This document shows positions 5,657 through 57,376 of a DNA stretch of 64,000 bases, piece after piece. Each line of letters starts with the position of its first letter. Within the stretch, counting starts at the first letter, position 1. This stretch comes from an uncultured Thermotogaceae bacterium (GTDB lineage Bacteria; Bipolaricaulota; Bipolaricaulia; Bipolaricaulales; Bipolaricaulaceae), in assembly GCA_964516385.1 (NCBI GenBank), contig CAZEYM010000005.1, positions 6,830 to 70,829 of the forward strand, in the 5' to 3' direction. The translations under genes and the position numbers were made by a program. Below the pieces are notes generated by a model, which was given only the letters and a program-made list of their open reading frames with translations, was not told the origin of the DNA and did no database searches.

Positions 5657-5673
5657 CGCACTCTTCCCCTAAC

Positions 5674-10136: not shown

Positions 10137-10177
10137 GTACTACCAAATGCAAAGCTGGGGCACACATAGCATGAGCG

Positions 10178-10207: not shown

Positions 10208-10242
10208 TCCCCGTTGGCTCACCTCACTAAAGGAGCCTCAGC

Positions 10243-10617: not shown

Positions 10618-10821
10618 ACCACTTACCTCCTTTGTCTTTTGTGTCGGCCGGCGGCTCTGGCCACCGACCAAAGGGCAGTGTACTGATAGCTTGTGAAGTA
10701 CTTATGAACGCCGCATGTGGTAAACGCGGATCTTCAGCGCGCAGCTGATAGCGACTGCAGCCCCGCGACATGAGAGCACAGGGCCCCGCCACTCAGCGCG
10801 CTTTGCGGGCAGTCGCGGCTG

Positions 10822-12133: not shown

Positions 12134-12134
12134 C

Positions 12135-12989: not shown

Positions 12990-13000
12990 AGGCTACCCTC

Positions 13001-13453: not shown

Positions 13454-13487
13454 CTCGCCGTCGGGGGGGCTGTGACCTGTTCGCGCA

Positions 13488-13537
13488 TTAGTTAGATGCC
13501 GGAACTAAGTATATGAGCGACGACAACCTGTTGTCAA
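13488..13537 (-). promoter_or_regulatory. Putative sigma-A promoter plus inverted-repeat operator upstream of marR
   Basis: On the minus strand: TTGACA (13537..13532), 18-nt spacer, TATACT (13513..13508). Immediately downstream is the inverted repeat TTAGTT-N9-AACTAA (13488..13508). The palindrome gacaac-ct-gttgtc (13522..13535) overlaps the -35 box. Confidence 0.4.
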
Positions 13538-13568
13538 GCTCTGTCCTTCTCCGTACGATTGTGTGCCG

Positions 13569-14021
13569 TTACCGGGTTCTTACGTTGTAGCCGCCGGTCG
13601 CCCCCGCGGAGGCGGCCGGCGCGGCCAGCCAGAGAAGCTCGGGCAGCTGGACCACAAACCCAAATCCCACAACCGCCCCGGTTCCGCCCACAGCTCCTAG
13701 AAAGCACAGTCCCAGATTGCCTTCGGCCTCCAAAATCGCGCCGGTGGCCCACACCCCCCCGAAGGCTCCCAAGGTGGTCCCGCCAGTGAAACCGATGACT
13801 GCTCCTAGGATTGCCCTGCCCAGGCATTCCCATCCGCTGCAGTCACCCATCAGAAGACCCGAGAGAGCGTATGCCCCGCCGAACCCGCCTACATATCCGG
13901 CCAGGGTCCCAACGATGAACTGGGGCACCACAGGGTCCGTTGCCTCCATCCCCGCGCAGCTCGGCCCCCACCAGGCAAGGAGTAACATTGCAGCTGCCAC
14001 CGTCACCACTTTCCAAACCAT
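13569..14021 (-). CDS. Glycine-rich (glycine-zipper-like) membrane protein
   Basis: 150 aa with AAAGGAG SD 7 nt before ATG 14021. Signal/TM N-terminus followed by repeated GxxxG-type stretches (GGFGGAYALSG, GFTGGTTLGAFGG, GAVGGTGAVVGFG). Confidence 0.6.
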   Translation of the reverse strand: MVWKVVTVAAAMLLLAWWGPSCAGMEATDPVVPQFIVGTLAGYVGGFGGAYALSGLLMGDCSGWECLGRAILGAVIGFTGGTTLGAFGGVWATGAILEAEGNLGLCFLGAVGGTGAVVGFGFVVQLPELLWLAAPAASAGATGGYNVRTR

Positions 14022-14022
14022 G

Positions 14023-14646
14023 TCACGCTCCTTTGTCCGCAGACCGCTCGGGACGAGGCGGTTGCCAACCCAGCTCCCGCATTAGGCAATACAGCTTGGC
14101 CAAAGGCAAGCCCATTACGTTGGCGTAATCCCCATCGACGCGCTCCACCAAGACCGCGCCTTGTCCCTGTATTGCATACGCTCCGGCCTTGTCCAGGACA
14201 TCCTCTGCAACCACGTACCAGTCGATCTCCTCTTCGCTCAGAGGTCTGAACCGCACCCGCGTCTCCACCAAGGCCTCCCGGGCCTCCCCCCCGCGGGAGA
14301 CCACCAAGCCGGTGAACACGGAGTGCCATCTTCCGGAGAGCGCTTTGAGATATGCGCGCGCTTGATCCGTGTCCACGGGCTTGCCCAAGTGTTCTCCTTC
14401 CAGAAACACGCCCGTGTCCGCCGCAATGATCAACGCGTGCGGAGCCCTGCGGAGCACATTCTCGTGCTTGCAATTGGCTACCGCCAAGAAGTCACCCGGC
14501 ACGCTCACGTTCGCCTCTTCACCGTCGGGGACCATGACCTCGAATGATGGCTCGATCCTCCGCAACAGCTCGCTCCGACGAGGAGACCTGGAGGCCAACA
14601 CGACGCGTTGCGGTCGGCTCCGACCCGGCCCATAATCAGTGCCCAT
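14023..14646 (-). CDS. maf: Maf-like nucleoside triphosphate pyrophosphatase
   Basis: Maf N-terminal motif VVLASRSPRRSELL and C-terminal DKAGAYAIQG. The start is uncertain: ATG 14646, ATG 14655 or an internal GTG. Confidence 0.85.
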   Translation of the reverse strand: MGTDYGPGRSRPQRVVLASRSPRRSELLRRIEPSFEVMVPDGEEANVSVPGDFLAVANCKHENVLRRAPHALIIAADTGVFLEGEHLGKPVDTDQARAYLKALSGRWHSVFTGLVVSRGGEAREALVETRVRFRPLSEEEIDWYVVAEDVLDKAGAYAIQGQGAVLVERVDGDYANVMGLPLAKLYCLMRELGWQPPRPERSADKGA

Positions 14647-15487
14647 GGAGATCATTTTCAGCGAGCAGAGCCTAGAATACCACGCCGTGGGGCACCCTGA
14701 AGGCCCTGGGCGCGTACGCATGGCCCAGCACTACCTGGAGCGGCTGGGCTACCCGTTCGTGGCTCCCGAGCCGGCCAAACGTGATCATCTACGCTTGGTC
14801 CATACAGAAGAGCACGTGCAGCGGGTGGAGAGAGAGGAATTCAACGATCCAGACTGTCCTCGCTATTCAAACATCCATGACTACGCTGCGCTGTCCACAG
14901 GTGGGGCCATCTCCGCTCGACAGAGAGGAGGATTCTCTATCATGCGGCCGCCGGGCCATCACGCCGGCCCCAACTTCCTTGGAGGGTTCTGTTACTATAA
15001 CTGCATTGCCGTGGCAGTAAGACAGAGCGGGCTCAAAACGCTGATTGTGGACATCGACGGACACCACGGCAATGGCACCGAGGCCATCTTCTCCGGCGAT
15101 CCCAACGTGACCTATATCTCCTTGCACCGGACGTACAACTACCCCGGCACAGGGCATCAATCACGGGGCAACTGCCTCAACTACCCGCTGCCGCCCCGGT
15201 GTGGAAAATCCCTGTACATAGACACCCTGGAACAGGCCCTGGCCCAGGCGGGAAGCAACTTCGAACAGCTCGCAATCTCAGCCGGCTTCGACACCCACAA
15301 AGACGACCCCCTGGCCTCATTAGGCCTGGAGGTCGAGGCGTTCTACGATGTCGGTTTTGTCCTCGGGGACCTCAACCTGCCTGCGTTCTGCGTTTTGGAA
15401 GGCGGCTACATCCCTGAGATCATGGGCCCGTCCATAGACATGCTCGTCACAGGCCTAAAAGAAGCAGCAAAAACAGCGGGAAGATAG
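14639..15487 (+). CDS. Histone deacetylase family protein (AcuC / acetylpolyamine amidohydrolase-like)
   Basis: Class I/II HDAC motifs RPPGHHA and DIDGHHGNGT, with GGY near the C-terminus. Start is GTG 14639 or ATG 14645. Confidence 0.85.
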   Translation: MPMEIIFSEQSLEYHAVGHPEGPGRVRMAQHYLERLGYPFVAPEPAKRDHLRLVHTEEHVQRVEREEFNDPDCPRYSNIHDYAALSTGGAISARQRGGFSIMRPPGHHAGPNFLGGFCYYNCIAVAVRQSGLKTLIVDIDGHHGNGTEAIFSGDPNVTYISLHRTYNYPGTGHQSRGNCLNYPLPPRCGKSLYIDTLEQALAQAGSNFEQLAISAGFDTHKDDPLASLGLEVEAFYDVGFVLGDLNLPAFCVLEGGYIPEIMGPSIDMLVTGLKEAAKTAGR

Positions 15488-16211
15488 ATTGTATGCCCGT
15501 GCACGGATCACACGGGTCGAAGCACTCTGCCAGGCAGCCAGTCAACGGTGGGCACGGTTGGCAAGCATCTTGGGCCGGCTCGGACGCCAATCCTGCCGTG
15601 TGTGGCGGGGAGCTCTCATTGTCCAATTCTTGCGCCGCCAGGGCGGTACGGAGTTCTATGTGGGCGTAGCCGTAGTCACCGTACTTGATTGCGTAAGGCT
15701 TGGAGGCATCTATGCTGCTGCCCATAACTACCAACCCCATTGTGGCAGGGTTCGGTGAGGCTTCTCCAGAGAGGAAATCCCCTGTCACCGATACGGTATT
15801 CTCCGCTGACGGACGAACCTCGACGTCCCCCTGAACGATCGCGATCTCCCCAGGGTCGAAACGGGCCTCCCACTCGGCAGTGACCATTATGAGGACTGTG
15901 TTGCGATCTACATATTGAGGGAGGAGCTCGGCCAACCTCTCCCCCATGCTGGCGCTGAGCGTGCGCTCGTTTACGTGAACGCACACGAACAAAAAGGCGG
16001 CCGTGGGCGTCTCAGCCGAAAAGACCGCCACCAAATCGGGGTCAAGACCTGTGTAAGAGATGAAACGTTCCAGGTCTGTGCTTGCGCTCAGCAGAACACC
16101 CCAGGCCAGAAGCAGACATAGGGCAACGTGTACGGGCCTCACTTTCAGCAGCACCACCAAGCCGCGAACACACCGATCCAGAGGAACCAAAAGAATGCCA
16201 ACAGCCACCAT
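15447..16211 (-). CDS. Hypothetical exported protein with Cys/Pro-rich C-terminal module and hydrophobic tail
   Basis: Only long ORF in this interval. Signal-like RPVHVALCLLLAWGVLLSAS. C-terminus is CQPCPPLTGCLAECFDPCDPCTG followed by IFPLFLLLLLGL. Start is ambiguous (ATG 16211 or GTG 16142). The 3' end overlaps the HDAC gene by 41 nt. Confidence 0.5.
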   Translation of the reverse strand: MVAVGILLVPLDRCVRGLVVLLKVRPVHVALCLLLAWGVLLSASTDLERFISYTGLDPDLVAVFSAETPTAAFLFVCVHVNERTLSASMGERLAELLPQYVDRNTVLIMVTAEWEARFDPGEIAIVQGDVEVRPSAENTVSVTGDFLSGEASPNPATMGLVVMGSSIDASKPYAIKYGDYGYAHIELRTALAAQELDNESSPPHTAGLASEPAQDACQPCPPLTGCLAECFDPCDPCTGIQSIFPLFLLLLLGL

Positions 16212-16321: not shown

Positions 16322-17365
16322 ATGCGCTCATCCGTTTGGGTAGCGGTTTTGCTGGCGTTCTTGACTTCCACGACGGCGGTAGCCGGATCCCTTCGCGTGT
16401 CGGTCCCTCCTCTGTTCGGCTCCGTACCAGTGATATTGGCCTCTGACACCGCATGGGGGCTGTTCGCTGAGGAAGGGCTCGCTGTGACCGTCGTTCCTCT
16501 ACCCAGCCAACGGGATCGCACAATGGCGTTCACGGCACAGCAAGTGGACGTGCTGGTGGCGGATCTCACCCAGGCTGTGATCATAGTCTCCCAGCAGAGC
16601 ACTGATGCGGTGATAGCAGGGGCCACATACTCTGTGGAACCGGCTGACGAGGGGAATTCTCCGCCTGTGATGCTCATTAGCCAGCGTTACGCGCGGGTGA
16701 CGTCCGTGGAGGAACTGGCGCAAGAGGCTTCCGAGGGCAGCGTGAAGATCGGCGTGCCCAGGCAGTCAGACCTTGAATTCATGCTGGACCAGCTGTTCGA
16801 GAGCACAGAGCTGCCCCTGCCGCCGGCACAGCAAGCGTACGTGGGTAGGGACGACCTGCTCATCAATGCCGACTTCCTGGGCAGGGGCCATTTTCACGCG
16901 GGGGTCTTCCCACAACCCTACGCTGATTACCTCCTGTCCATTGACTTCCCAGGCAAACCGGAGTTCTTCGTATTGTCTGACTTCATGGGCATCCCCGTTC
17001 CTCCCACGGTGATCGTCCTGCAGAGGAGCCTTCTGGAGGAAAGACCCGAGGACGTGGCCGCTTTCTTCCGAGCTCTGGATGGAGCAGTGGAGAGGGTCAA
17101 CACCCTCCCGCGTGATGATCTGTTGGAGCTGGGGTGGCAGCTGGTCACTCATCTGTTCATGCCGGGCCAGGAACCTCACACACTGGCGGCTGAGGATAGG
17201 GAGAATGTGGAGAAGGCCATCGAGAAGCTGTTTGTGCCCGAATTTCCTTTGCCTCATTCTCTGGACCCCGAGCTGTTCAACCAAGTGCTTTCCTGGGCCC
17301 AGCGCAAAGGATACGTTAGGTTCCCTGCTCGGTTCGACGAACGCGTGATTTCTCCAGTCCGATGA
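16322..17365 (+). CDS. ABC transporter substrate-binding protein, NMT1/SsuA-like (nitrate/sulfonate/bicarbonate class)
   Basis: Signal peptide MRSSVWVAVLLAFLTSTTAVAG. Class assignment comes mainly from its partners, the SsuB/TauB-type ATPase and SsuC/TauC-type permease immediately downstream. Confidence 0.75.
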   Translation: MRSSVWVAVLLAFLTSTTAVAGSLRVSVPPLFGSVPVILASDTAWGLFAEEGLAVTVVPLPSQRDRTMAFTAQQVDVLVADLTQAVIIVSQQSTDAVIAGATYSVEPADEGNSPPVMLISQRYARVTSVEELAQEASEGSVKIGVPRQSDLEFMLDQLFESTELPLPPAQQAYVGRDDLLINADFLGRGHFHAGVFPQPYADYLLSIDFPGKPEFFVLSDFMGIPVPPTVIVLQRSLLEERPEDVAAFFRALDGAVERVNTLPRDDLLELGWQLVTHLFMPGQEPHTLAAEDRENVEKAIEKLFVPEFPLPHSLDPELFNQVLSWAQRKGYVRFPARFDERVISPVR

Positions 17366-18096
17366 TCGAGGTGGAGAACGTCAGCATAGCCTATGGTCAC
17401 GGACGCAGAGAGATAGCTACGTTGAACGGAATTACCTTCCACGTGAGTGCCGGAGAGCTTGTGTCGGTCGTCGGTCCGTCCGGGTGCGGGAAGAGCACGC
17501 TCCTATATGCGCTGGACGGCCTGCTCAGTCCTACTCAAGGGAGGATCCGGATCGGGGGTGAGGAAGTCAGAGGAATCCGTCGTGACGTGGCACTCATTTT
17601 GCAGGATGCAGGGCTCCTCCCATGGAAGACGGTCAGACAGAACGCGCAGTTGGCGTTGCGCATCCAGGGACTGAAGGAAGACGTGGGTGACACCCTTCAC
17701 TCGTTGGGGCTGGCAGGTTTTGAGTCCCGTTTCCCCGCTGAGCTCTCCGAGGGGATGAAGCGAAGGGTAGGGATTGCCCGGGCCCTTGCACTGCACCCGC
17801 GGGTGCTGCTCATGGACGAACCGATGGCGAATCTGGATTCGTTGACCAGAGAAAGGATTCAGAACCTGATCCTCGAGTTGTGGAGGACTTTGCACTTCAC
17901 CGGTGTGCTGGTGACGCACGACATCGAGGAGGCTGTCTTCCTCGGCCGCCGCATTCTGATCCTGTCGCCCCGCCCGGCCACGCTGACTGAGGTGGTGTAT
18001 AACCCCGCAGCGGGCTCGACGGAATACCGTGGCAGCGATGAGTTCTACTCTCGCGTGGACTACCTCAGGTGCAAGCTGGGGGTGGACCACTCATGA
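17362..18096 (+). CDS. ABC transporter ATP-binding protein (SsuB/TauB-like)
   Basis: Walker A GPSGCGKST, signature LSEGMKRR, Walker B LLMDEP. ATGA overlap with the upstream gene. Confidence 0.9.
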   Translation: MIEVENVSIAYGHGRREIATLNGITFHVSAGELVSVVGPSGCGKSTLLYALDGLLSPTQGRIRIGGEEVRGIRRDVALILQDAGLLPWKTVRQNAQLALRIQGLKEDVGDTLHSLGLAGFESRFPAELSEGMKRRVGIARALALHPRVLLMDEPMANLDSLTRERIQNLILELWRTLHFTGVLVTHDIEEAVFLGRRILILSPRPATLTEVVYNPAAGSTEYRGSDEFYSRVDYLRCKLGVDHS

Positions 18097-25444: not shown

Positions 25445-26542
25445 TCACAACAGGCGAACTACCGCTGATAGCACCATGTCCTGCGTCCACTCCTCGGCGT
25501 CTGCTCGCTTGGCGAAGGCCAGCTGCAGCGACACGTCCACCCCTCCCAGGTCGAAGGCCAACTGGAAGGTGGCAGACTGGCTTCCCCTGCCTCCTGTGAC
25601 GTACGCGTCGTGCCGCATGACGTAGTCCACGTTGAAGGTGGTGATGTCGTTCAGACGGTAGTCATAAGAGGCAGCGAGGCGCGTCGACCACTTGTGCTCC
25701 GTTGGATAGGGGGGCTTGGCGTAGCTGGCCGACAAGCGCATCTGAGAGCCTGGTTCGGGAGCCAACGCTACGTCGCCGGCCACTGTCACTACCACGTCGC
25801 GATCGGCGTGGCGAGGGTCCAGGACGTCGTACCCTACGCCGATCGAGACTGTCCAGCCGCAGTAGCGCTGCCAACGGGAGTCCACAATGATGTCCTCCAG
25901 CGCAAGGAGTGCCTGGGCGTTCAGCCTGACCCCCGCACCTTCCAGGACCATATCCTCGAGGACTGTCAGAAGCTCGGCGGTTGTCTCGTACTCAGGCGCA
26001 CGACCTATCTCCTCGGCCAACTCCAGGACTAGCGCGTTTGGAAGCGAGGCTGCAACCGCGCCCATGTTCAGCAGACGGCGTTCAGCGTACAGGGCTTTGG
26101 CCAGAGGTGTGACGTCGGCGAATCTCCCGTACCCCAGCCCTGTCTCGAAACCAAGCCCTGGTTGGGGGAACTCCGTGGCCAGCACGCCCTCGAATGCTCC
26201 GTACGCGAAGTAGGGGGTGTCTGCGCTGAAATATCGCTGTATCCGACCGCGGACCTGCGAGTCCGCGCTTGCCAGGGACAACTCTGAGAGCACGAAGTCA
26301 CCCACTCCGACCAGTTCGAAGCCAAGCAAAGAGGTGTCATAAAGATGAGAGTAGCTGATGGCAAAGCGGCCGGAGTTGATCCCCGCTCCTGGGCGGGCAG
26401 GATCATGATAATAACGGTAATTGAATGAGGTCTTCATCTCTAAGATGTTCGTCTCGGGTGTTCGGTAATCGCACAAACTCAGTCCGGACACAGAAAAGGT
26501 TGTTGCCGTCAGCCATAGTAACAGCACCGTCCACTGTCGCAC
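25445..26542 (-). CDS. Putative outer-membrane beta-barrel protein with central helical insert
   Basis: GTG start with GGAGG SD 8 nt upstream. Signal peptide MRQWTVLLLWLTATTFSVSG. Amphipathic alternating strands at both ends (FNYRYYHD, RFAISYSHLY, RLAASYDYRL, FNVDYVMRHD, ATFQLAFDL, VSLQLAFA). A helical-looking middle of about 80 aa. Confidence 0.55.
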   Translation of the reverse strand: MRQWTVLLLWLTATTFSVSGLSLCDYRTPETNILEMKTSFNYRYYHDPARPGAGINSGRFAISYSHLYDTSLLGFELVGVGDFVLSELSLASADSQVRGRIQRYFSADTPYFAYGAFEGVLATEFPQPGLGFETGLGYGRFADVTPLAKALYAERRLLNMGAVAASLPNALVLELAEEIGRAPEYETTAELLTVLEDMVLEGAGVRLNAQALLALEDIIVDSRWQRYCGWTVSIGVGYDVLDPRHADRDVVVTVAGDVALAPEPGSQMRLSASYAKPPYPTEHKWSTRLAASYDYRLNDITTFNVDYVMRHDAYVTGGRGSQSATFQLAFDLGGVDVSLQLAFAKRADAEEWTQDMVLSAVVRLL

Positions 26543-31174: not shown

Positions 31175-32414
31175 TGTTCATCAGCTCCAGGAATTGCTTG
31201 TTCGTACTTGTCTGCTCCATCTTCTGCCGGATGAACTCCAACGCCGCCCCCGGTTCCTGCATCTCGGCGATAAGCTTACGCAGGATCCACACTCGGCGAA
31301 GGACATCGGGGGCGAGAAGGAGTTCCTCTTTTCTCGTACCCGACTGGTGCAGGTCGATGGCGGGGAACATCCGACGGTTGGCGAGGTCGCGGTTTAGAAG
31401 GAGCTCCATGTTCCCCGTGCCTTTGAACTCCTCGAATACCACTTGATCCAATCGGGAACCGGTGTCCACGAGTGCCGTGGCCACTATGGTAAGTGACCCG
31501 CCTTCTTCGATGTTTCGGGCAGCCCCGAAGAACTCCTTGGGCTTGTACAGCGCAGTGGGGTCGATCCCTCCCGATAGCAGCTTCCCGGACGGGGCGATGC
31601 TGAGGTTGTATGCCCTACCCAACCGGGTCAGCGAGTCCATGAGAATCACCACGTCTTGCCCGCACTCTACGAGGCGCTTGGCCTCCGAGGTGACCAGCTC
31701 AGCCACCCGCGTGTGGTGAGCGGGTTCCATGTCGAACGTAGCAGCGACAACCTCGGCCTGGTTCACTGAGCGGCGGAAGTCAGTGACCTCCTCTGGCCGT
31801 TCGTCGACCAGCAAGATCAGCAGGCGCACGTCGGGGTAGTTGGTCTCGATTCCCTGCGCGATGCACTTCAGGAGGGTGGTCTTGCCGGCCTTCGGCGGGG
31901 ATACGATGAGCCCTCGCTGGCCTTTTCCGATCGGGGAGAACAGGTCGATCATCCGAGTGGAGAGCTCCTCTGGATCATACTCCAGAATGAACTGCTCATC
32001 TGGGTGGAGTGGTGTCAGTTGCTGGAACTCCATCCTCCGCCGTACGGACTCGGGGTCCTGGTCGTTCACCTTCTCCACTCGCAGCAGAGCGAAGTAGCGC
32101 TCGTCTTTCTTCGGGGGGCGGACAAGTCCGTGCAGTATATCTCCGCTCTTCAACGAGAACCGTTTGATCTGGGAGGGAGATACATACACATCGAACCGAG
32201 ATGGTAGGCATGACTTGTCGCGCAGAAAGCCGTATCCATCCTGCATTATATCAAGAACGCCTTCTGTGGAGAGCTCGTCGCGCTCCGCCAGGGTGCGCAT
32301 TACCTCCAGCTGCAACTCGGCGTGACCCAGTCCCCCAGCTCCGTCCATGTTGTGTTTCTTGGCAAGAGCTTGCAGTTCGTCCACCGTCATGTTTCGGACA
32401 ACGCTCATCTCCAT
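31167..32414 (-). CDS. rho: Transcription termination factor Rho
   Basis: Rho N-domain GVLDIMQDGYGFLR, Walker A SPPKAGKTTLL, and the C-terminal RMFPAIDL..SGTRKEELL block. ATG 32414 chosen because GAGGTGG lies 5 nt upstream. Confidence 0.9.
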   Translation of the reverse strand: MEMSVVRNMTVDELQALAKKHNMDGAGGLGHAELQLEVMRTLAERDELSTEGVLDIMQDGYGFLRDKSCLPSRFDVYVSPSQIKRFSLKSGDILHGLVRPPKKDERYFALLRVEKVNDQDPESVRRRMEFQQLTPLHPDEQFILEYDPEELSTRMIDLFSPIGKGQRGLIVSPPKAGKTTLLKCIAQGIETNYPDVRLLILLVDERPEEVTDFRRSVNQAEVVAATFDMEPAHHTRVAELVTSEAKRLVECGQDVVILMDSLTRLGRAYNLSIAPSGKLLSGGIDPTALYKPKEFFGAARNIEEGGSLTIVATALVDTGSRLDQVVFEEFKGTGNMELLLNRDLANRRMFPAIDLHQSGTRKEELLLAPDVLRRVWILRKLIAEMQEPGAALEFIRQKMEQTSTNKQFLELMNSE

Positions 32415-32424
32415 ACATACCACC

Positions 32425-33399
32425 TCAGATGTTGAAACCTCTGGCTGCTACCGCACACAGTCCTACAAGGTACGTCGCCACCACCAGCGCGGAGGCGAGA
32501 TCCACTCGGCCTACCTGCTTTCGAGACCGCACACCCAGAGAGGCCAGCACCACGGCAGCCAGCGCCACGCCCCAGGCCCCCACCAACACCAACGGCCAGG
32601 CCTCGTCCCCCAGCCTCCCCAACAGGGGCCGTCCGTACACCACGTCGGTGAAGAAAACGGTGGAAACATTGAACGCGTTGGAACCAAATACGTTCCCGGC
32701 GAACAAGTCGTAGGCCTTCAGCCGCACCGCTTCCCAAGAGACTGCTAACTCTGGAAGTGAGGTGGCCATGGCCACCAAAGTCGATCCAACCAGTGACTGG
32801 CTCAGGCCGGTGTTGGCAGCTATCTCCCGAGCTGAATAGGTCAAGGCAACGCCAGCCACTATCACCACCAACCCCGAAGCGGCGGCTACCAAGGGAGCCT
32901 TGCCCATCCCCGGGTGGTCCTCCAGTGGAGCGGCGGGCTCTGCGGTGTACTGCAGCCAAGCGGCGACGAGGAACAACGCTGCGATGAGAATCGACGCCAC
33001 CGAAAGTGTGCCTATGGACGGGCCGCCGCCCAGCGCGATCGCTCCCAACACCACTGCGGCCATGAGCACTCCCATCGAGCAAGAAACCGTGTGCGACGCC
33101 GCCAGACGGGAGAACAGTGCGCCGCCTGCCATCAGCCCGAATAGCCCGAGTATGCCCAGGTTGAAGGCGTTGGAGCCCAGTGCGTTGCCCACTGCTATGG
33201 CTGGCGCGTCGATACCCCCTCCGGTCATGGTGACAACCAGCTCGGGAAGAGAGGTTACCAGCCCCACCAGGATGAACCCCAGCCATCCGCGAGACAGACC
33301 GGTGGCTTCGGCGATGCCTTCGGTGGCCCGCACCAAGCGACGACCGGACCACAAGATAGCTAGCGCCGAGAGCAGAAGCGTCGTCCAAGCCCACGTCAT
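32425..33399 (-). CDS. Sodium/calcium exchanger family (CaCA, YrbG-like) membrane protein
   Basis: Two alpha-repeat motifs, GNALGSNAFN and GNVFGSNAFN, with SLPEL after each half start. Confidence 0.85.
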   Translation of the reverse strand: MTWAWTTLLLSALAILWSGRRLVRATEGIAEATGLSRGWLGFILVGLVTSLPELVVTMTGGGIDAPAIAVGNALGSNAFNLGILGLFGLMAGGALFSRLAASHTVSCSMGVLMAAVVLGAIALGGGPSIGTLSVASILIAALFLVAAWLQYTAEPAAPLEDHPGMGKAPLVAAASGLVVIVAGVALTYSAREIAANTGLSQSLVGSTLVAMATSLPELAVSWEAVRLKAYDLFAGNVFGSNAFNVSTVFFTDVVYGRPLLGRLGDEAWPLVLVGAWGVALAAVVLASLGVRSRKQVGRVDLASALVVATYLVGLCAVAARGFNI

Positions 33400-33836
33400 G
33401 GCAGTTGGCCTTCCTCATCGATGAGCCCCAGCCTCCTTGCGTGCTTTCCACCAGCGAATTCCGTATGCAGGAAAGTCTGCACGATGTCTTCCCCCAATCC
33501 TGAGCCGATCACCCGGCCGCCCAGACACAGTACGTTGGCGTTGTTGTGAGCCCGGGCCATGCGTGCCATATAGGCGTTGGTACACAACGCTGCGCGGATT
33601 CCACGTACTCGGGAAGCTGCCATGGCCATGCCGATACCCGTGCCACAGGCGAGCACCCCCAGATCTGCCTCGCCAGTGGCCACGGCCTTGGCTACAGCAA
33701 AGGCATGACGAGGATAATCGGTCGGGGAGCTGTCGCTGGTTCCCATGTCCAGTAGGCAGTACCCGCTCAGTACATCTTGCTTCAGGGCCTGCATCAACGC
33801 ATAACCAGCATGATCGCAGCCAATTGCAATAACCAT
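33396..33836 (-). CDS. rpiB: Ribose-5-phosphate isomerase B
   Basis: IAIGCDHAGY, CGTGIGM and the RpiB/LacAB layout. ATGA overlap with the downstream gene. Confidence 0.9.
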   Translation of the reverse strand: MVIAIGCDHAGYALMQALKQDVLSGYCLLDMGTSDSSPTDYPRHAFAVAKAVATGEADLGVLACGTGIGMAMAASRVRGIRAALCTNAYMARMARAHNNANVLCLGGRVIGSGLGEDIVQTFLHTEFAGGKHARRLGLIDEEGQLP

Positions 33837-33860
33837 CGCAGGACCTCCAGCCCTCTGGCT

Positions 33861-34496
33861 CTACAGCTTCCGGACCAGGGAGCGCAGTATGTCCCAGTAC
33901 ATGGAAAGGCGATCCACCAAGCCAAGGTACAGCCCTCGTTTTTCCTCTTTGCGTATGTGGCTGACCCCATCCAAGATCACCTTCGTCTGGCGCCAACCCT
34001 CCTTCAAGGCCAGCTTGGTAAGCGCAATCTCTATCCCGAAGTCCATGTCGCCAACCATGCCCCGGGCCCGGTCCCATACCCGGCGAGACAGGACCCGCTG
34101 TCCGGAGAGGAAAGGGACAACGCGCTGGGAGAAGTCTGTCCCTCTGCGGCCATCGCGGAAGACGCCGATGACGATCTCCCCTTCCCCTGCGCCGTAGGCG
34201 CTCACCAGCAGTTCGACGTGCTCTCTCTCCAAGCCTGTGAGATCTGCGTCCAGAAACAACAAAACATCCTCCGAAGCCTTGTGCACGCCTGCGTCCAATG
34301 CGGCTGCCTTTCCACTGTTTTGTGCCAGCCTCAGCACCATGGCCCCGTGCTTTTCGGCCTCAAGGGCCGTCTCATCGGCGGAACCATCGTCGACGACGAT
34401 GATCTCCGCGACGGAAGGGGCGGCACGCAAAGCGCGGATCACTGCGCCGATGCGGCCAGCTTCGTTGAACGCTGGTACCACGGCCGAGACTTTCAT
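33861..34496 (-). CDS. Glycosyltransferase family 2
   Basis: SAVVPAFNE...IIVVDDGSADET...FLDADL is the GT-A DxD architecture. 211 aa. Confidence 0.85.
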   Translation of the reverse strand: MKVSAVVPAFNEAGRIGAVIRALRAAPSVAEIIVVDDGSADETALEAEKHGAMVLRLAQNSGKAAALDAGVHKASEDVLLFLDADLTGLEREHVELLVSAYGAGEGEIVIGVFRDGRRGTDFSQRVVPFLSGQRVLSRRVWDRARGMVGDMDFGIEIALTKLALKEGWRQTKVILDGVSHIRKEEKRGLYLGLVDRLSMYWDILRSLVRKL

Positions 34497-39956: not shown

Positions 39957-42917
39957 GTGATTCGTCGAGTGGATCGCTACTTGTGGGGGGAGTTGCTGGG
40001 CCCGTTCGGCCTGGCGCTGCTGGCGTTCTTGGTGTTCATCGGTCTGGAATTGGTATTGTCGCTTTCGGACGTGTTCCTGGCGCGGGGGGTGGGGGCGGCG
40101 ACTCTGCTGCGGTTGCTTTTCCTGAAGCTGCCGAGCATTTTTACCTATGCCCTGCCGGGAGGCGTCCTGTTGGCGGTCTTCTTGGCGTTGGGGCGGTTGG
40201 TGTCCGACAGAGAACTGTTGGCGCTGCAAGCAGTCGGCTACTCCTTGAGGCGGCTGATGGTGCCGTTTGTCTGCTTCGGAATAGCGGTGAGTGGGCTAGC
40301 GTATGTGCTGAGCGAGGTTGCGGTGCCGGCTGCGGAATCGGCGTATCGTCAGGAGCTTCTCACAGTGCTGTACAGAGGTGAGGTCCCCGCTCTCCAGGAA
40401 CACGTGTTCTTCCGCGGACAGGAAGGAGAGCTGTACTACATCCAGAGCTACGAGGGGGATCGAGCGCTTGGAGTGGTAATGTACGACTTGCAGGGAAGGG
40501 TGTTCCCGCCACAAGGTAGGTTCCCCACGGTGCTCACTGCCGAACAAGGACGGTTGCGGGGGGGTGAGCTGGCCCTACAGGACGGGCGACTGCTCCGGTT
40601 CGGCTCTGACGGAGCGTTGGAGGAGATGGCTCGGTTCACGGCGCTTACCCTGGAGGTGGGGGAGGACGTGCACCAGGCTGTTCTGGGGGGGAAGACGCCG
40701 GCTGAGATGTCGCTGGGAGAGCTTTCCGAGCGCATTGAGTTGTTCCAGCGCTCGGCACTGGAGCCACGGAGCCTGGTGGTCGAGTACCACTCCAAGCTGG
40801 CGGTGATCGCGGCGAGTGCCGTGTTTGCGATGTTGGGCGCTCCTTTGGGCATACTCCTGGGTCACCGAGGGAGGGCAGCAGCGGCGATCGCCGGCTTTGC
40901 CTTGGTGGCTGGCGCGCAGGGGATGCTCATCTGGTCACGCACCATGGCCCGCCGAGGGATGCTGCCGGCGTCGCTGGGTGGGTGGCTTCCTCACATCGTG
41001 TTGGTCGCGTTGGGCTTGGCTTTGCTCATGCTGGCCGACCGACGAAGGGGCCGCGGTGTGGGCGCGATTGTCCTTGCTGTGGCTGTGGGAACGGTGGGGT
41101 GGGCTGCGGAGTGGCCGTTTGAACAACTGGTTGCCGAGCGTATGGTGCTCGGCCCAGACGCGACCTCCATCTCGGCGGAAGGAGTGGAGGCCACGCTTTC
41201 AGGCTATTCGCTTGTGGCTCGCTTGCTCCACGGGGTGCGACACGAGGGCGGTTGGCGGGTGGAGGCGGAAGGTGCCCGCCTGACAGGGGCGAACGTAGAC
41301 GTTGAGGCCGAACGCATTTCTGCCTGGTTCGACGCCAGGGGGTATCTGCAGGAGGCAGTTGCCGAAGGCTTCCAAGGGAATTCAGCGTTCTCCGGCCCGG
41401 AGAAGGAAGAGGTCATACTGTTTTCCGGAGACTGGGGCAAGGCCACGTTCGCTGAGGGAGAACTGACTAGGTTGGACGGGAGAGATGTGCAAGTTACCAC
41501 CTGTCCGTGTTTGGAGGGTGCGCCGTACAGGATCGATGCTTCTGTGTTTGTCCTGCTTCCGCGACGGTGGCTCTACGCACAGGACGTCACGGTGAGGGCA
41601 TACGACGTCCGGGCCGGATGGTTGCCAGTGTACGCGGCGCGGCTGGGAGAGGAAGCCTCTCCCTTGTTCCCAGAGGTGGGCAGGGAAGGCCAAAACTGGT
41701 ACCTGCGTTGGCACATCCCGTGGGCTCTGGGGGAGGGGCTGTGGGGAGCAGTGGGGATGACGTGGTTCCCCTGGGCAGGCAGGACCCAGCCCATGTTGGA
41801 TGTACTGTGGGACACCGGGGAGCTTCATCTGACCCCCGGCGCCGTTGTGGTCAGAGCTCGCGGCTCGGCGTATTGGGGAAGCTGGCGCTTGTCGGCGAGC
41901 CTGTCGGAGGAGCGGCTGTCGGCCGAGGCGCGGGGGGAGTTGGGTCTGTGGGACTGGTCGGTGCTGTGGGGCAGAGTGGAACGAGATGGTGAGCTCGTCT
42001 ATGAAAGGGCGCCGCTTGTCACGTTGAGCGGGCGCGCGGGGGAGTGGCTGGGAAGCGACCTTACGCTGCGAGTTGAGATGGGCCGCTTTACAGAGGCAGG
42101 GAGCGCGGGAACTCGCAGCGGGACGACGTTGTCCTGGACGAGAAGCTGGGATTTGGGACTGCTCAAGGTGGACACGCCATGGCGGCTGGGCGCCGACTTA
42201 TACAAAGAGGGGCATAGGCTGTCGGCAGGGGTGGATCCTGTCCTCAGGCTGGGGGGGCTAGAGCTCTCCTACCGCGGGCGGTTGACCCGCGGTCGTTCTC
42301 CCTTTGACTTCGACGCGGCGCCGTCCGAAAGTAGCCTCGGGGCGAGCTTCGTGGGACGGTTAGATCCGTGGAGCCAACGGGTATCCATGAGATGGGACCT
42401 GGGCACGGGTGCTCTCCTTCCCGGAAGTTGGTCTTTGCGTGGGCCGGGGGTGAAAGTTGATCTGTCGTTCGAGCCGGTCCCGCTAGCGTTCAGGCGCGGT
42501 ACGTGGGAGTTCTCGTGGGCGGAAGGTGATTCCAGCGTGTCGCTGCGGGGAGGGGTGATGCTGAGCCCGTTGGTGTGGGACGACGTGCTCTTGAGCGGAT
42601 CATGGCAGCCGGAAAACGCAACGGTCAACGTGGGGCTGCGTTTTGGCGTCGAGCCTTTGTCGCTGCGGCGCTCAGCGGCAGAGGTGAGTTGGCAGATTGG
42701 AGACACCTGGCACGTGCGTGTGTGGGGAGATTTCGATTGGGACTCAGGCAGATGGGTTCGGTTGGGTGGTGGAGCGAGCCGTTTGCTGCAAGGATGCCTT
42801 CGCGTCGGGATGCAGGTCGACCTCTCCGGCATGCAGATCTTCGTCGACGTCCCGGCGTTCAGCGAGGCGCGGGCGGTGTTCGAGCCTCAGGATATCGGGC
42901 TCCGCATCGGGGGTTAG
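39957..42917 (+). CDS. Fusion protein: LptF/LptG-family permease + extra TM anchor + OstA/LptA-like domain + LptD-like beta-barrel
   Basis: Uninterrupted 986-codon ORF with a GTG start. Residues 1-365 look like YjgP/YjgQ (MIRRVDRYLWGELLGPF; 3 TM, soluble beta-domain, 3 TM). Then DRRRGRG and a hydrophobic segment VGAIVLAVAVGTVGWAA. Then about 120 aa of strand-rich repeats. Then TTCPC..PYRIDASV..LPVYAA..SPLFPEVG..WYLRWHIPW, which resembles the E. coli LptD junction (FTSC..W..PIFYSPY..SGFLIP..PYYWN) recalled from memory. About 470 aa of alternating W/R/G/S/L strand pattern follow. Confidence 0.7.
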   Translation: MIRRVDRYLWGELLGPFGLALLAFLVFIGLELVLSLSDVFLARGVGAATLLRLLFLKLPSIFTYALPGGVLLAVFLALGRLVSDRELLALQAVGYSLRRLMVPFVCFGIAVSGLAYVLSEVAVPAAESAYRQELLTVLYRGEVPALQEHVFFRGQEGELYYIQSYEGDRALGVVMYDLQGRVFPPQGRFPTVLTAEQGRLRGGELALQDGRLLRFGSDGALEEMARFTALTLEVGEDVHQAVLGGKTPAEMSLGELSERIELFQRSALEPRSLVVEYHSKLAVIAASAVFAMLGAPLGILLGHRGRAAAAIAGFALVAGAQGMLIWSRTMARRGMLPASLGGWLPHIVLVALGLALLMLADRRRGRGVGAIVLAVAVGTVGWAAEWPFEQLVAERMVLGPDATSISAEGVEATLSGYSLVARLLHGVRHEGGWRVEAEGARLTGANVDVEAERISAWFDARGYLQEAVAEGFQGNSAFSGPEKEEVILFSGDWGKATFAEGELTRLDGRDVQVTTCPCLEGAPYRIDASVFVLLPRRWLYAQDVTVRAYDVRAGWLPVYAARLGEEASPLFPEVGREGQNWYLRWHIPWALGEGLWGAVGMTWFPWAGRTQPMLDVLWDTGELHLTPGAVVVRARGSAYWGSWRLSASLSEERLSAEARGELGLWDWSVLWGRVERDGELVYERAPLVTLSGRAGEWLGSDLTLRVEMGRFTEAGSAGTRSGTTLSWTRSWDLGLLKVDTPWRLGADLYKEGHRLSAGVDPVLRLGGLELSYRGRLTRGRSPFDFDAAPSESSLGASFVGRLDPWSQRVSMRWDLGTGALLPGSWSLRGPGVKVDLSFEPVPLAFRRGTWEFSWAEGDSSVSLRGGVMLSPLVWDDVLLSGSWQPENATVNVGLRFGVEPLSLRRSAAEVSWQIGDTWHVRVWGDFDWDSGRWVRLGGGASRLLQGCLRVGMQVDLSGMQIFVDVPAFSEARAVFEPQDIGLRIGG

Positions 42918-42942
42918 CGCCGTGTACAATGAAACTCACTCT

Positions 42943-43485
42943 ATGAGGAAAGCGCGCATTCCGGACCTGCTGACTTTCAGTCGGGCCCTCGTTGGGCTCG
43001 CCATTTTGGCGATGATCCCCGTGGGCATAGATGCTCTCTCCTCGGTTCTGTGGCTGTTGCTCCTCGGATGGACCACGGACCTGCTGGATGGCAGGCTGGC
43101 CCGGAGGATGGACCTTGAGCCATCGTGGATCGGAGTTCACGAGTTCGAGTTCGACATGTTCATGGTCTTCTGCTCGGCCGTCTACCTGGTGGCCAGCGGG
43201 GGAGTTCCCACGTCGGCGGGCAGCGTGTACCTGCTGGTGGCAGTGACCCTGGTGGCGTTCTCCTACGGTAGGGCGAACCAGTTTCTCAGGTTCAAGACGC
43301 TGACCATGGGCTTGGCGGTGCCCTGGGTGTTTGGGCCGTTTGTGCTTGCCTATCTGCGGGGAGAGCAACTCGTCGCCTACGTAGGGCTTCTGTGGATGGC
43401 CACGGCCTTGCTCATCGATTGGAGACGATTCACCGGTGTTGTGGAAGATTTCTTGGCCGGGGCGAGGGCTCTCCTGCGCCGCTAG
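42943..43485 (+). CDS. CDP-alcohol phosphatidyltransferase family membrane protein (atypical second motif half)
   Basis: ATG 42943 (MRKARIPDLLTFSR). DLLDGRLAR matches D-x2-DG-x2-AR. The following G-x3-D-x3-D is replaced by GVHEFEFD. 180 aa, polytopic. Confidence 0.65.
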   Translation: MRKARIPDLLTFSRALVGLAILAMIPVGIDALSSVLWLLLLGWTTDLLDGRLARRMDLEPSWIGVHEFEFDMFMVFCSAVYLVASGGVPTSAGSVYLLVAVTLVAFSYGRANQFLRFKTLTMGLAVPWVFGPFVLAYLRGEQLVAYVGLLWMATALLIDWRRFTGVVEDFLAGARALLRR

Positions 43486-44363
43486 ACGGGGGTCGCCAGG
43501 ATAGGTACCGGTACCTCTGCTCGGGCGAGTCTCTCTTCTGCCAGCTTTACGTCACGCCTTATCTGCTCCTTCAACGAATCGGGGTTGGAGAATCGCTCAT
43601 CTCTGCGCAGGTGGGCGAGCAAGTGAACTTCCAGCAACCCTCCGGGTGGGGCGGGGGGAGAGGTGAGCAGGTGGAGCTCGGCGGAGGCAGGTAACTCGGG
43701 GAAGGTAGGGCGCTCCCCGATGTAGAACAAGGCGGGAGCGCTTCCTGCGGGGTAGAACATCCACGCTGCGTAGACTCCGTGAGCCGGCAAGACGAGCTCA
43801 GGCATCGGCTCAATGTTGATCGTGGGATAGCCGAGGCCCCTGGCCAGCCCCACACCTGTGGTCGGAGTTCCCCACAGGGTGGGGGGGCGGCCGAGAAGTG
43901 CGCTGGCCTGGGTTACCTTGCCTGCGCGAACGAGCTCACGTACACGGCGCGCTCGTACCGGGAGGCCGGCGATCTCCAATGCTGGGACCACAAGCACTTC
44001 CACCCCCAGCTCAGGGGCGAGCCTGTGTGCTAGCTCCGGGTCGCCTCCCCGATCGCGGCCGAAGCGATGGTCTGCCCCCATGACCACTGCCCGCGCCTGT
44101 AGCCGCCCGGCGAGCTCACGGCGCAGAAAGTCCTCGGGATCCAAATCGCGAATCTCGTGCCAACCAGTTAATACCACCTCGTCGGCCACGCGCCTCAATA
44201 GTCTTTCCTTGGCTGGGGTGGGCAGAAGGGCTGGAGGAGAGGAGGGGAACGTGTAGACGCTCAGCAAAAGCCTGTGGCGCTCGGCTAGCTCTCTGCCGGC
44301 GGCGAGCAGGGCTTGATGCCCCAGGTGTACACCGTCGAATCTGCCGACCGCAACGACCCGCAA
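43482..44363 (-). CDS. ribF: Bifunctional riboflavin kinase / FAD synthetase
   Basis: GRFDGVHLGHQAL near the N-terminus; kinase part GYPTIN, GVYA and HLL. Probable TTG start at 44363, just after the upstream stop. The long upstream extension of the track ORF overlaps the neighbouring gene. Confidence 0.85.
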   Translation of the reverse strand: MRVVAVGRFDGVHLGHQALLAAGRELAERHRLLLSVYTFPSSPPALLPTPAKERLLRRVADEVVLTGWHEIRDLDPEDFLRRELAGRLQARAVVMGADHRFGRDRGGDPELAHRLAPELGVEVLVVPALEIAGLPVRARRVRELVRAGKVTQASALLGRPPTLWGTPTTGVGLARGLGYPTINIEPMPELVLPAHGVYAAWMFYPAGSAPALFYIGERPTFPELPASAELHLLTSPPAPPGGLLEVHLLAHLRRDERFSNPDSLKEQIRRDVKLAEERLARAEVPVPILATPV

Positions 44364-55390: not shown

Positions 55391-56356
55391 ATGGCCGGCG
55401 AGAACGGACTGCTGAACGTAGAGGACCTCAAGCTGTACTTCCGCACCAGAAAGGGCGTGGTGCAAGCCGTGGACGGGGTGAGTTTCGCCATGGACCGTGG
55501 GCCGGCCATGGTCGTGGTCGGTGAGTCGGGCTGTGGCAAGAGCACATTGGCACGGGCGGTGCTGCGGCTCCTTCCGCGCAATGTGCACACGTACACGGGC
55601 AAGGTCCTGCTGAACGGAGATGATGTCATGCGCTTGGGGGAGGAAAGGTTCCGCCGCCAGGTGAGGTGGGTAAAGATGGCTTTGGTTTCGCAGGCGGCGA
55701 TGAACTCGCTGAACCCCGTGGTCAAGGTGGGTGACCAGGTGGCAGAGCCGTTGCTGGTGCACCGGCGGGCGGCGAACAAGCGGGAGGCACTGCAGCGAGC
55801 GGCGGAGGCTTTCTCTCTGGTGGGCGTGTCTGCGGATTTCTTGTCCCGCTATCCGTTCGAGCTTTCCGGCGGCATGCGCCAGCGGGTGGTGCTGGCGATG
55901 GCTCTGGTTACGAACCCGGACCTTGTGTTCCTGGATGAACCTACGAGCGCGTTGGATGTTCTTACGCAGACGAACATCATGAACGTGCTGAAGGGGATCA
56001 AGAGAGACCTCGGGATGACCTTCATCCTGATCACGCACGACATCGCCACCTCCAGCGAGCTGGCCGACCGGGCTGCGGTGATGTATGCGGGTCACCTGGT
56101 GGAGCTATCGGACGCGGAGGTTTTCTTCAGCCAGCCGAGGCATCCGTATTCAGAGAGGCTGATGGCTAGCGTCCCCACCCTGAGGGAGGACAAGGATCTT
56201 GCGTTCATCCCGGGGCAGCCTCCCACGCTGCTGGGGCCGCCCGAGGGCTGCCGGTTCGCCGAGCGTTGCCCGTCTCGCTTTGAGAGGTGCGATGAGGAGC
56301 CCCCCATGGTGAAAGTGGAGGAGGGCCATGAGGTCAAGTGCTGGCTGTACGTGTGA
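55391..56356 (+). CDS. ABC transporter ATP-binding protein (DppD/OppD-like)
   Basis: Walker A GESGCGKST, signature LSGGMRQR, Walker B VFLDEPTSALD. C-terminal oligopeptide-type extension with Cys residues. Confidence 0.9.
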   Translation: MAGENGLLNVEDLKLYFRTRKGVVQAVDGVSFAMDRGPAMVVVGESGCGKSTLARAVLRLLPRNVHTYTGKVLLNGDDVMRLGEERFRRQVRWVKMALVSQAAMNSLNPVVKVGDQVAEPLLVHRRAANKREALQRAAEAFSLVGVSADFLSRYPFELSGGMRQRVVLAMALVTNPDLVFLDEPTSALDVLTQTNIMNVLKGIKRDLGMTFILITHDIATSSELADRAAVMYAGHLVELSDAEVFFSQPRHPYSERLMASVPTLREDKDLAFIPGQPPTLLGPPEGCRFAERCPSRFERCDEEPPMVKVEEGHEVKCWLYV

Positions 56357-56365
56357 GGCGATGAC

Positions 56366-57376
56366 ATGGACAACAATGCGTTGTTGAGCGTACGAGAGCT
56401 GAAGACGTGGTACGAGATCCGCAAATGGGGTCTGATCCTCGCCGGCCACGTGCGGGCGGTGGACGGCGTTTCCTTCGACCTAAGGCACGGTGAGGCCATC
56501 GCGCTGGTGGGAGAGTCGGGCTGCGGCAAGAGCACGCTGGCCAAGACCATGGTCGGGCTGGAGCCTCCCACGGGGGGCAAGGTGCGCTTCGACGGTGAGC
56601 TCCTCGACGGCAAGGGAAAGCCGGACTTGCGCCGTTACCGATCGAAGGTGGGCTTTGTCCAGCAAGATCCCTATGGTGCGCTGCCGCCGTTTATGACTGT
56701 GGGGCGGGCGTTGCTGGAACCGATGATCATCAATCGCGTAGGCAAGGGCCAGGAGAGAAGGCAGCGGATTAGGGAAGTGCTGCAGGAGGTCAAGATGACC
56801 CCGGTGGAGGACTTCTTGAACAAGTACCCCCACATGCTCTCTGGCGGGCAGCAGCAGCGCATCGTCATCGCTCGAGCGATGGTGCTGGAGCCCAAGCTGT
56901 TGGTGGCCGATGAGCCGGTGTCCATGCTTGACGCTTCCGTGCGGGTGGAGATCCTCGAGGTTATGCGCAAGATCCAAAAGAGCCATGATCTGGGGGTGTT
57001 GTACATCACGCACGATCTGTCCACGGTGCGGTATTTCTCGGAGCATGCCTTTGTCATGTACGCGGCCAAGCTGGTGGAGAAAGCAGAGGTCAAGGAGCTC
57101 GTCCACAACCCGCTGCACCCTTACGCGCAGGCGCTGTTGGAGGCGATTCCAGATCCCAAGGCGGAGAACGCCCACGTGATGAAGGACGTCCCCACAGGCG
57201 AGCCGCCGAGCCTGATGCATCCTCCCGCCGGGTGTCGGTTTCACCCTCGCTGTCCGCACATCATCGAAGGAACGTGTGACGTGGATGAGCCCCCCGCTTT
57301 TGAGCCCCGCCCGGGACACTTGGTCGAGTGCTGGCTGTACCGAGATGGAGGCGATGGGGATGGAGAAACCGCTTAG
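56366..57376 (+). CDS. ABC transporter ATP-binding protein (DppF/OppF-like)
   Basis: Walker A GESGCGKST, signature LSGGQQQR, Walker B LVADEPVSMLD. C-terminal PPAGCRFHPRCP motif. Confidence 0.9.
   Translation: MDNNALLSVRELKTWYEIRKWGLILAGHVRAVDGVSFDLRHGEAIALVGESGCGKSTLAKTMVGLEPPTGGKVRFDGELLDGKGKPDLRRYRSKVGFVQQDPYGALPPFMTVGRALLEPMIINRVGKGQERRQRIREVLQEVKMTPVEDFLNKYPHMLSGGQQQRIVIARAMVLEPKLLVADEPVSMLDASVRVEILEVMRKIQKSHDLGVLYITHDLSTVRYFSEHAFVMYAAKLVEKAEVKELVHNPLHPYAQALLEAIPDPKAENAHVMKDVPTGEPPSLMHPPAGCRFHPRCPHIIEGTCDVDEPPAFEPRPGHLVECWLYRDGGDGDGETA

Follow-up and report, generated by a model that had tools for sequence, protein, structure and literature searches.

The 64,000-nucleotide stretch analysed here (the window; contig CAZEYM010000005.1 of an uncultured bacterium placed in the phylum Bipolaricaulota) contains a single open reading frame (ORF) that joins both ends of an Lpt-type pathway for lipid export, each of them embedded in a membrane: an inner-membrane LptF/G permease and an LptD-type translocon. 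Together with the mechanism and cargo proposed below, we consider this reading of the ORF probable. The fused ORF (39957..42917, + strand) comprises 986 uninterrupted codons, starts with GTG instead of ATG and ends with TAG. Its homologues start at the same position, with the N-terminus MxxRVDRYLW. All parts of the protein are encoded on the + strand. Residues 1-360 (39957..41036) are the LptF/LptG-type permease domain. They are followed by the basic patch DRRRGRG and the hydrophobic segment VGAIVLAVAVGTVGWAA (“TM7”), which together make up residues 361-384 (41037..41108). An LptD-N-type beta-jellyroll of about 12 strands occupies residues 385-562 (41109..41642), and a predicted LptD-like outer-membrane beta-barrel occupies residues 573-975 (41673..42881). 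The junction between jellyroll and barrel is marked in the alignments by the motif WLPVYAARLGEEASPLFPEVGREGQNWYLRWHIPW (residues 555-589, 41619..41723).

A first-pass annotation, made from the sequence alone, had described a stop-free frame of 986 codons, and this frame and every peptide quoted from it are present in the translation. The order of parts that it proposed also stands, including the seventh hydrophobic segment (residues 368-384) after the basic patch (361-367). The sizes of the parts needed correction. The soluble part of the permease has about 100 amino acids, not 150, the strand region after TM7 about 175, not 120, and the barrel about 400, not 470. The TTCPC motif, which had been assigned to a separate later segment, already lies within the strand region that follows TM7.

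The permease half is assigned by family, fold and predicted topology. Residues 7-357 matched PF03739 (LptF_LptG) with 252.7 bits against a cut-off of 27.9 (E = 6.8e-75), covering profile positions 1-351 of 353. In the AlphaFold2 model, residues 2-139 form three long helices, residues 150-233 a beta domain and residues 253-360 helices again. This gives six transmembrane helices with a periplasmic beta-jellyroll (window 40404-40655) between the third (TM3) and the fourth (TM4), as had been proposed for residues 1-365. A Foldseek comparison with the LptG chain 6mjp_G gave E = 9.5e-16 and a target TM-score of 0.71; LptG chains scored 0.70-0.75, and LptG and LptF chains together 0.6-0.75. The family profile, compared with the sequences of the PDB, matched solely LptG and LptF chains. 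A word-index search with the N-terminal domain returned six proteins. The scores against the NCBIfam equivalogs of LptF (TIGR04407, 145.6 bits, cut-off 230) and LptG (TIGR04408, 131.4 bits, cut-off 240) were both below the cut-off, so that the permease half is a single undifferentiated LptF/G.

Residues 385-986 are an LptD homologue, predicted to consist of a jellyroll and a large barrel; four independent lines of evidence (structure, relatives, profile-profile comparison and motifs) agree on its identity. AlphaFold2, supplied with the family alignment, gave a confident all-beta model, with a predicted local distance difference test score (pLDDT) of about 90 for residues 390-975 and a mean of 82.7. 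Within the jellyroll (residues 385-562), pLDDT was about 85-92. The model has about 12 strands in roughly 175 amino acids at residues 390-562, including the TTCPC motif (514-518), and about 33 DSSP strand elements in roughly 400 amino acids at residues 573-975. The turns between these elements are very short, and the DSSP string by itself suggests roughly 26-30 true strands. A Foldseek search of the PDB placed full-length LptD (4q35_A) first, both for the whole chain (E = 1.9e-22) and for a model of the C-terminal part (E = 2.2e-20). LptD chains filled the top 15 matches of the whole chain and all of the top 37 matches of the C-terminal model. Ushers, BtuB and VDAC reached no better than E of about 1e-5, about 15 orders of magnitude behind LptD.

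A hidden Markov model (HMM) of the C-terminal part, searched against 1.84 billion representative proteins, retrieved 266 relatives, including many stand-alone proteins of 700-820 amino acids. Sixty-five stand-alone relatives were scanned against families, and 22 of them matched LptD_N (PF03968), four DUF3769, three LptC and one LptD. The longer fused relatives (1044-1188 amino acids) all matched PF03739, and some also matched PF03968 (27.5 bits for P0039). A further profile search reached proteins with precomputed Pfam assignments to PF03968, PF19838 and PF04453. In hhalign comparisons, the fused C-termini matched the stand-alone family with 100% probability (E = 1.9e-50, 560 columns), and the stand-alone family matched E. 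coli K-12 LptD with 98.6% probability (E = 1.4e-15, 591 columns, LptD 48-734). When the window sequence headed a profile built from diverse fused C-termini, this profile matched E. coli LptD with 93.7% probability (E = 1.8e-7), aligning window residues 387-578 with LptD 49-237. For the window sequence itself, homology to LptD over the barrel is thus transitive, by way of the stand-alone family.

The alignments also paired short motifs in the same order in the window protein and E. coli LptD: TTC with FTSC, WLPVYAA with PIFYSPY, SPLFPE with SGFLIP, and YLRWHIPW with YLPYYWN. The E. coli motifs cited in the first-pass annotation are correct and align as it proposed. C516 of the TTCPC motif (residues 514-518, window 41496-41510) aligns with C173 of E. 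coli LptD, and C947 (QGC947LRVG, window 42795-42797) aligns with C724. Both cysteines are invariant in all fused lineages. The E. coli residues C173 and C724 are members of the two cysteine pairs (C31/C173 with C724/C725) behind the interdomain disulfides of LptD. Other motifs of the barrel are ERAP (RLPE in relatives) and GRSPFDFD. Residues 555-589 are the most conserved stretch of the C-terminal part and align with the E. coli stretch that ends in YLPYYWN. In the model of the C-terminal part alone, this stretch, ARLGEEASPLFPE (window 41619-41723), had pLDDT below 50; conceivably, it forms a functional loop where jellyroll and barrel meet.

Several results weigh against this reading. The C-terminal 620 amino acids had no match in Pfam or NCBIfam at E up to 10, including PF03968, PF04453 and PF19838, and sub-pieces behaved likewise. 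Their family profile found no match among PDB sequences. The link to LptD therefore needed structure prediction and intermediate profiles: the expected LptD-like jellyroll and barrel after TM7 were recovered in this way, and of the profile searches proposed in the first-pass annotation the one with the permease succeeded directly while those against the OstA/LptD families did not. A profile of close relatives gave a weak local match to E. coli LptD (2.7% probability in hhalign) that picks out the C947/C724 motif. The predicted TM-score of the model (pTM) was 0.49, so that the arrangement of its domains is unreliable. TM-scores to LptD were only 0.3-0.4 with root-mean-square deviations (rmsd) of 10-15 Å; because of these values, the geometry and strand number of the predicted barrel may differ from the 26 strands of LptD. 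Finally, lptB, lptA/C, lpx, kds and bamA genes were not found within the 64-kb window.

The comparison of related loci indicates that the fusion ORF is real and conserved, and neither a chance ORF nor a collapsed frameshift. Among 36 complete related loci from independent metagenome-assembled genomes (MAGs), 34 have an uninterrupted frame across the junction, with 36-64% identity at the protein level, and the frameshifts of the other two lie away from the junction. All of the 30 database relatives of the C-terminal 620 amino acids carry PF03739; the complete ones have 973-1010 amino acids and 35-64% identity. Their sources name them Candidatus Bipolaricaulota or Acetothermia, and the phylum assignment of relatives used here is that of the source names. 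A lookup by exact sequence found no entry identical to the window protein. A pattern-based scan of species-representative genomes found 38 loci of the same fused kind; it recovered loci of the Bipolaricaulota type only and is uninformative on other phyla. A sequencing or assembly error near 41030-41130 could in principle mask a stop or frameshift between ordinary lptF/G and lptD-like genes, and one metagenome contig (L047) does have a frameshift exactly inside the TM7 segment (7020-7074), where gene calling split it into two products (382 and 531 amino acids). This is, however, the sole junction break among about 40 loci, and the second piece would lack a start codon with a signal peptide, so that L047 looks like an error or a pseudogene. 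Because a single frame is kept across related loci from independent assemblies, and fused proteins of more distant kinship are found in further classes and phyla, an artefact is excluded for practical purposes and has a vanishingly small probability. Two internal starts for a separate LptD were considered and rejected: M358 has no obvious Shine-Dalgarno sequence, and a start at V368 would leave out the charged n-region of a signal peptide.

The fusion is conserved across Bipolaricaulota, and related fusions were found in Halanaerobiales, Limnochordia and other Bacillota MAGs. Like the window protein, these related fusions (P0128, P0137, P0162 and P0096) consist of permease, hydrophobic segment, jellyroll and barrel. 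They have in common with the window protein the invariant residues C, SPFxFD, C and AFP. In a Halanaerobiales MAG (L044:10001-13180) and a Bacillota MAG (L045:10001-13243), the fused gene lies inside a classical cluster for the outer membrane and lipopolysaccharide (LPS). These clusters contain tamB, bamA, ompH, lpxA/B/C/D/I, lptC- and lptA-like genes and a gene for an ATP-binding cassette (ABC) ATPase of 239-244 amino acids. The C-termini of the two fused proteins match the stand-alone LptD-like profile with E values of 1e-140 to 1e-157. Judged from this gene context, the fusion family is a bona fide Lpt component where LPS exists, and the fusions of Halanaerobiales and Bacillota are presumably true LPS exporters. 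The context differs from that of the window protein in its LPS and outer-membrane genes and in its separate lptC- and lptA-like genes.

No LptD was found in Halanaerobiales or Negativicutes in an earlier survey (Antunes et al. 2016), and LptD has been stated to be absent from atypical diderms or diderm Firmicutes (PMC8871954, PMC5007114). In the Halanaerobiales and Bacillota MAGs described above, the “missing” LptD appears, from its sequence, to be the C-terminal 700 amino acids of the single LptF/G gene. The same Halanaerobiales cluster encodes, between an LptC/LptA-like gene and the ABC ATPase gene, a 785-amino acid protein (L044:14101-16458) that has no Pfam match and no match to the LptD-like profiles.

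Four longer relatives of 1044-1188 amino acids (P0039 at L046:10001-13567, with 1188 amino acids, P0033, P0036 and P0042) carry a second copy of the jellyroll between TM7 and the LptD-like part. This suggests that the length of the putative bridge has been varied within the chain, not by means of separate LptA/LptC genes. In a MAG labelled Bipolaricaulia, the gene for a stand-alone LptD-like protein of 789 amino acids (L048:8001-10370, P0063) lies among unrelated neighbours, and this protein carries a signal peptide of its own. Therefore, fused and unfused forms both exist in or near the phylum. Four loci labelled “uncultured Thermotogaceae” or “Thermotoga sp.” (L012, L013, L025 and L032) have a GC content of 63-70% and the fusion of the Bipolaricaulota type, and the three of them with downstream sequence have the Bipolaricaulota gene order. 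Their taxonomic labels are probably wrong, and they were set aside as evidence on Thermotogota because of this GC content and gene order.

The first-pass annotation had regarded such a fusion as undescribed. This does not hold, as Sexton et al. (2023, PNAS; PMC10160955) reported that G4FGC1 of Thermotoga maritima, a “putative ABC permease”, is a fusion of LptF/G-, LptA- and LptD-like parts. According to that article (PMC10160955), the protein is enriched in the toga by mass spectrometry, is conserved across Thermotogae, and was proposed to move lipids from the inner membrane to the toga, which is rich in phosphatidylglycerols and glucolipids. By this description, and not by sequence, G4FGC1 resembles the window protein in having permease, jellyroll and LptD-like barrel in one ORF of an LPS-less toga diderm. 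An additional LptA-like domain is described for G4FGC1, whereas in the window protein a single jellyroll separates TM7 from the barrel and the longer Bipolaricaulota relatives have two. Localisation by mass spectrometry, as described there, concerns the Thermotoga protein only. The parts of that article covered here do not mention for Thermotoga a signal-peptide-like TM7 or a co-operonic gene for a cytidine diphosphate (CDP)-alcohol phosphatidyltransferase, both of which are features of the Bipolaricaulota fusion (see below). Neither a search with a diverse profile nor one by cluster names brought up any Thermotoga protein. In the literature searched, a description of the fusion in Halanaerobiales or Bipolaricaulota was not found.

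The window protein was further compared with the Lpt proteins of E. coli. It resembles E. coli LptD in its predicted jellyroll followed by a very large predicted barrel, in its motif order, and in both conserved cysteines, one where the jellyroll ends and one close to the barrel's C-terminus. It differs from E. coli LptD in its low identity (about 10%), in lacking a direct Pfam match, in its TM-scores, in its barrel of about 400 amino acids with much shorter loops (about 550 in E. coli), and in lacking a free N-terminal signal peptide. If lipid A is not synthesised in the phylum, LPS is moreover excluded as its cargo. To our knowledge, no LptE is known in Terrabacteria. The resemblance to E. 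coli LptB2FG(C) lies in the LptF/LptG fold of six helices and a periplasmic jellyroll, and in TM7 followed by a jellyroll, which is reminiscent of the anchor and jellyroll of LptC. On the other hand, one undifferentiated LptF/G takes the place of the F/G pair, lptB is not adjacent, and the window protein does not match the LptC family PF06835 of Pfam.

A non-homologous parallel is known from Veillonella parvula, whose long MlaD consists of an MCE domain, a helical stalk and a beta-barrel at the C-terminus and was proposed to be an ancestral envelope bridge in Terrabacteria (PMC10665443). In this protein, too, an inner-membrane-anchored part of an ABC lipid transporter and a predicted outer-membrane barrel are on the same polypeptide (PMC10665443). 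The folds are unrelated: an MCE hexamer with a helical tunnel in V. parvula, a jellyroll slide in the Lpt case.

The segment that joins the two halves of the window protein resembles a signal peptide, with a positive n-region, an h-region of 15-17 amino acids, and small residues (G-W-A-A) just before the jellyroll. In the hhalign alignment, the start of the jellyroll in the fused proteins corresponds to the first mature residues of the stand-alone relatives, which have ordinary N-terminal signal peptides. Therefore, TM7 is the positional equivalent of the signal peptide of LptD. All the fused homologues have the same n-h-c layout, with an h-region of 11-17 amino acids that often contains G or P and with small residues 2-5 amino acids ahead of the conserved (P)PF start of the jellyroll. 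In the Firmicutes fused members, TM7 ends in textbook AxA sites. Probably, TM7 was once the signal peptide of LptD and has become an internal seventh hydrophobic segment joining both halves.

The permease gene fusion is followed, 25 bp after its stop codon and on the same strand, by a gene for a 180-amino acid CDP-alcohol phosphatidyltransferase (42943..43485, + strand; PF01066 at 25.9 bits, where the cut-off is 22). This gene lies directly 3′ of the fusion, on the same strand, in each of the 39 related loci (among L001-L042) that extend far enough downstream, and it also follows the deep-branching 1188-amino acid variant L046. The two genes are probably in the same operon. In the predicted transferase of the window, the usual motif seems changed at its final acidic residues (..DLLDGRLARR..EFEFD..). 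Upstream of the fusion is a divergent MiaB-like radical S-adenosylmethionine (SAM) gene on the opposite strand, and the order MiaB-like gene, fusion, CDP-alcohol phosphatidyltransferase gene is conserved among relatives.

These parts suggest how the protein might work. An LptB-like ATPase encoded elsewhere would drive the permease, which is probably homodimeric, to pull an amphipathic lipid out of the inner membrane. For the diderm Firmicute A. longum, a lone LptF/G that works as a homodimer is reported (PMC13018214). The acyl chains would then pass along the small jellyroll of the permease into the LptD jellyroll docked to it edge to edge, and the lipid would enter the barrel and the toga-like outer membrane. 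With two jellyrolls and no LptC or LptA module, such a bridge would be short, about 10 nm. This length would follow from about 60 Å per jellyroll, as implied by the 185 Å bridge of three jellyrolls modelled for Borrelia (bioRxiv 10.1101/2022.12.21.521298).

The only closed Acetothermia genome discussed in the literature covered, Ran1, has no LPS genes (PMC6092417), and a toga-like outer membrane is described for J31, a Bipolaricaulota strain in culture (bioRxiv 10.1101/2025.11.21.689855). Bipolaricaulota, the neighbour (sister) phylum of Thermotogota, is also reported to be without Mla (PMC10665443). Given the reported lack of LPS genes in the phylum, LPS is an unlikely cargo, and a glycerophospholipid or glycolipid would be the most likely one. 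The product of the co-operonic CDP-alcohol phosphatidyltransferase is a candidate cargo. It counts against this proposal that the transferase had no NCBIfam equivalog match, so that its head group could not be assigned.

The gene product may not remain one chain. Cleavage by signal peptidase after TM7 is a serious possibility because of the signal-peptide layout and position of TM7 and the AxA sites in Firmicutes. We lean slightly towards it for these reasons and because the Firmicutes relatives also retain separate lptC and lptA genes; the gene would then encode a joint precursor from which equal amounts of permease and LptD arise. An uncleaved chain is topologically coherent too, since the N-edge of its jellyroll would lie at the inner membrane like that of LptC and the C-edge would run into the barrel like that of LptD. 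On this alternative, which is quite possible, TM7 would be a permanent LptC-like anchor in a single chain of seven inner-membrane helices and an outer-membrane barrel, that is, a minimal bridge, closed covalently, whose 1:1 stoichiometry and span are both fixed. The N-edge of the jellyroll begins about five residues past TM7, as needed for LptC-like docking on the LptF/G jellyroll, and its C-edge continues into the barrel. The fusion is retained across the whole phylum and beyond, longer relatives have gained their second jellyroll within the chain and not as a separate gene, and no lptC or lptA gene adjoins the fusion in Bipolaricaulota. In many Bipolaricaulota sequences, a PPPF motif comes directly after the small residues and would block signal peptidase at some candidate sites, which is a point against cleavage. 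Sexton et al. drew the Thermotoga protein as spanning the envelope (PMC10160955), and the long MlaD with its C-terminal barrel is a predicted precedent (PMC10665443). Permanent anchoring is, however, hard to reconcile with the position of TM7 at a cleavable signal peptide, with the short h-regions and small-x-small residues of every homologue, and with the Firmicutes relatives that have the fusion together with separate lptC and lptA, where the LptD jellyroll would have to be held at the inner membrane. The toga enrichment of the Thermotoga protein is more simply explained by a released LptD part, and the TM7 linker has pLDDT below 50 in the AlphaFold2 model. The first-pass annotation had one chain across both membranes; its topology is self-consistent, but the claim was overstated for a TM7 at the position of a cleavable signal peptide. 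Nor is the bridge “complete” in one ORF, as it had claimed: there is one jellyroll between TM7 and barrel, with no LptC/LptA module and no LptB in the window. That a 108-kDa uncleaved polypeptide would sit in both membranes as the shortest possible Lpt bridge and export a glycerophospholipid made by the co-operonic transferase is a combination we find doubtful. If true, it would be an anterograde phospholipid exporter built on an Lpt scaffold in an LPS-less diderm, and would have implications for which of the two, Lpt route or LPS, came first.

The cargo of the LptD-like machinery could also be surface lipoproteins, as proposed for the LptD homologue of Borrelia, which lacks LPS as well. Depletion of this protein, BB0838, blocks the display of surface lipoproteins, and the same paper points to orthologues of LptD in further LPS-deficient diderms, T. 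maritima among them (bioRxiv 10.1101/2022.12.21.521298); such orthologues have been noted since 2015 (bioRxiv 10.1101/2022.12.21.521298). Nothing in the window fixes the cargo. The invariant operon partner, however, is a lipid head-group transferase and not a lipoprotein-processing gene, and Witwinowski et al. make the case that neither lipoproteins of the outer membrane nor the Lol system is ancestral in Terrabacteria. The Thermotoga study ties its fusion protein to lipid patches in the toga (PMC10160955). A lipoprotein cargo is thus improbable, and a lipid cargo is preferred.

The delivery of lipids to the outer membrane is poorly understood in LPS-less diderms such as Thermotogota, Bipolaricaulota and Deinococcota. 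The basic idea of an Lpt fusion in toga organisms has already been published, which limits the novelty of the present findings. New here are the sequence-level link of the fused family to LptD, the equivalence of TM7 with a signal peptide, the invariant lipid-synthesis neighbour, and the fusion within LPS clusters of Firmicutes reported to be without LptD. An LptD homologue is thus present in lineages said to lack it, hidden in the unannotated C-terminal 600 amino acids of “LptF/LptG family permease” proteins. In Bipolaricaulota, the operon tie to a lipid head-group transferase is a testable hint at the cargo. The protein also touches on the question of whether one bacterial polypeptide can have an end in each membrane, which cultured strain J31 makes testable.

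Elsewhere in the 64-kb window, three ABC ATPases are encoded, of the taurine/nitrate/sulfonate type and the Opp/Dpp type. They were considered as LptB candidates and rejected, because the ATPase at 17362-18096 is a subunit of a taurine/nitrate/sulfonate-type importer and the pair at 55391-57376 is of the Opp/Dpp type. Four further ORFs on the - strand (7110-8096, 25448-26542, 32408-33451 and 33418-34077), of 220-365 amino acids, had no Pfam match at E = 1e-5. GC skew follows the coding strand: it is +0.22 over the fusion gene (window 40001-44000, + strand) and negative over blocks of genes on the - strand (1-16000).

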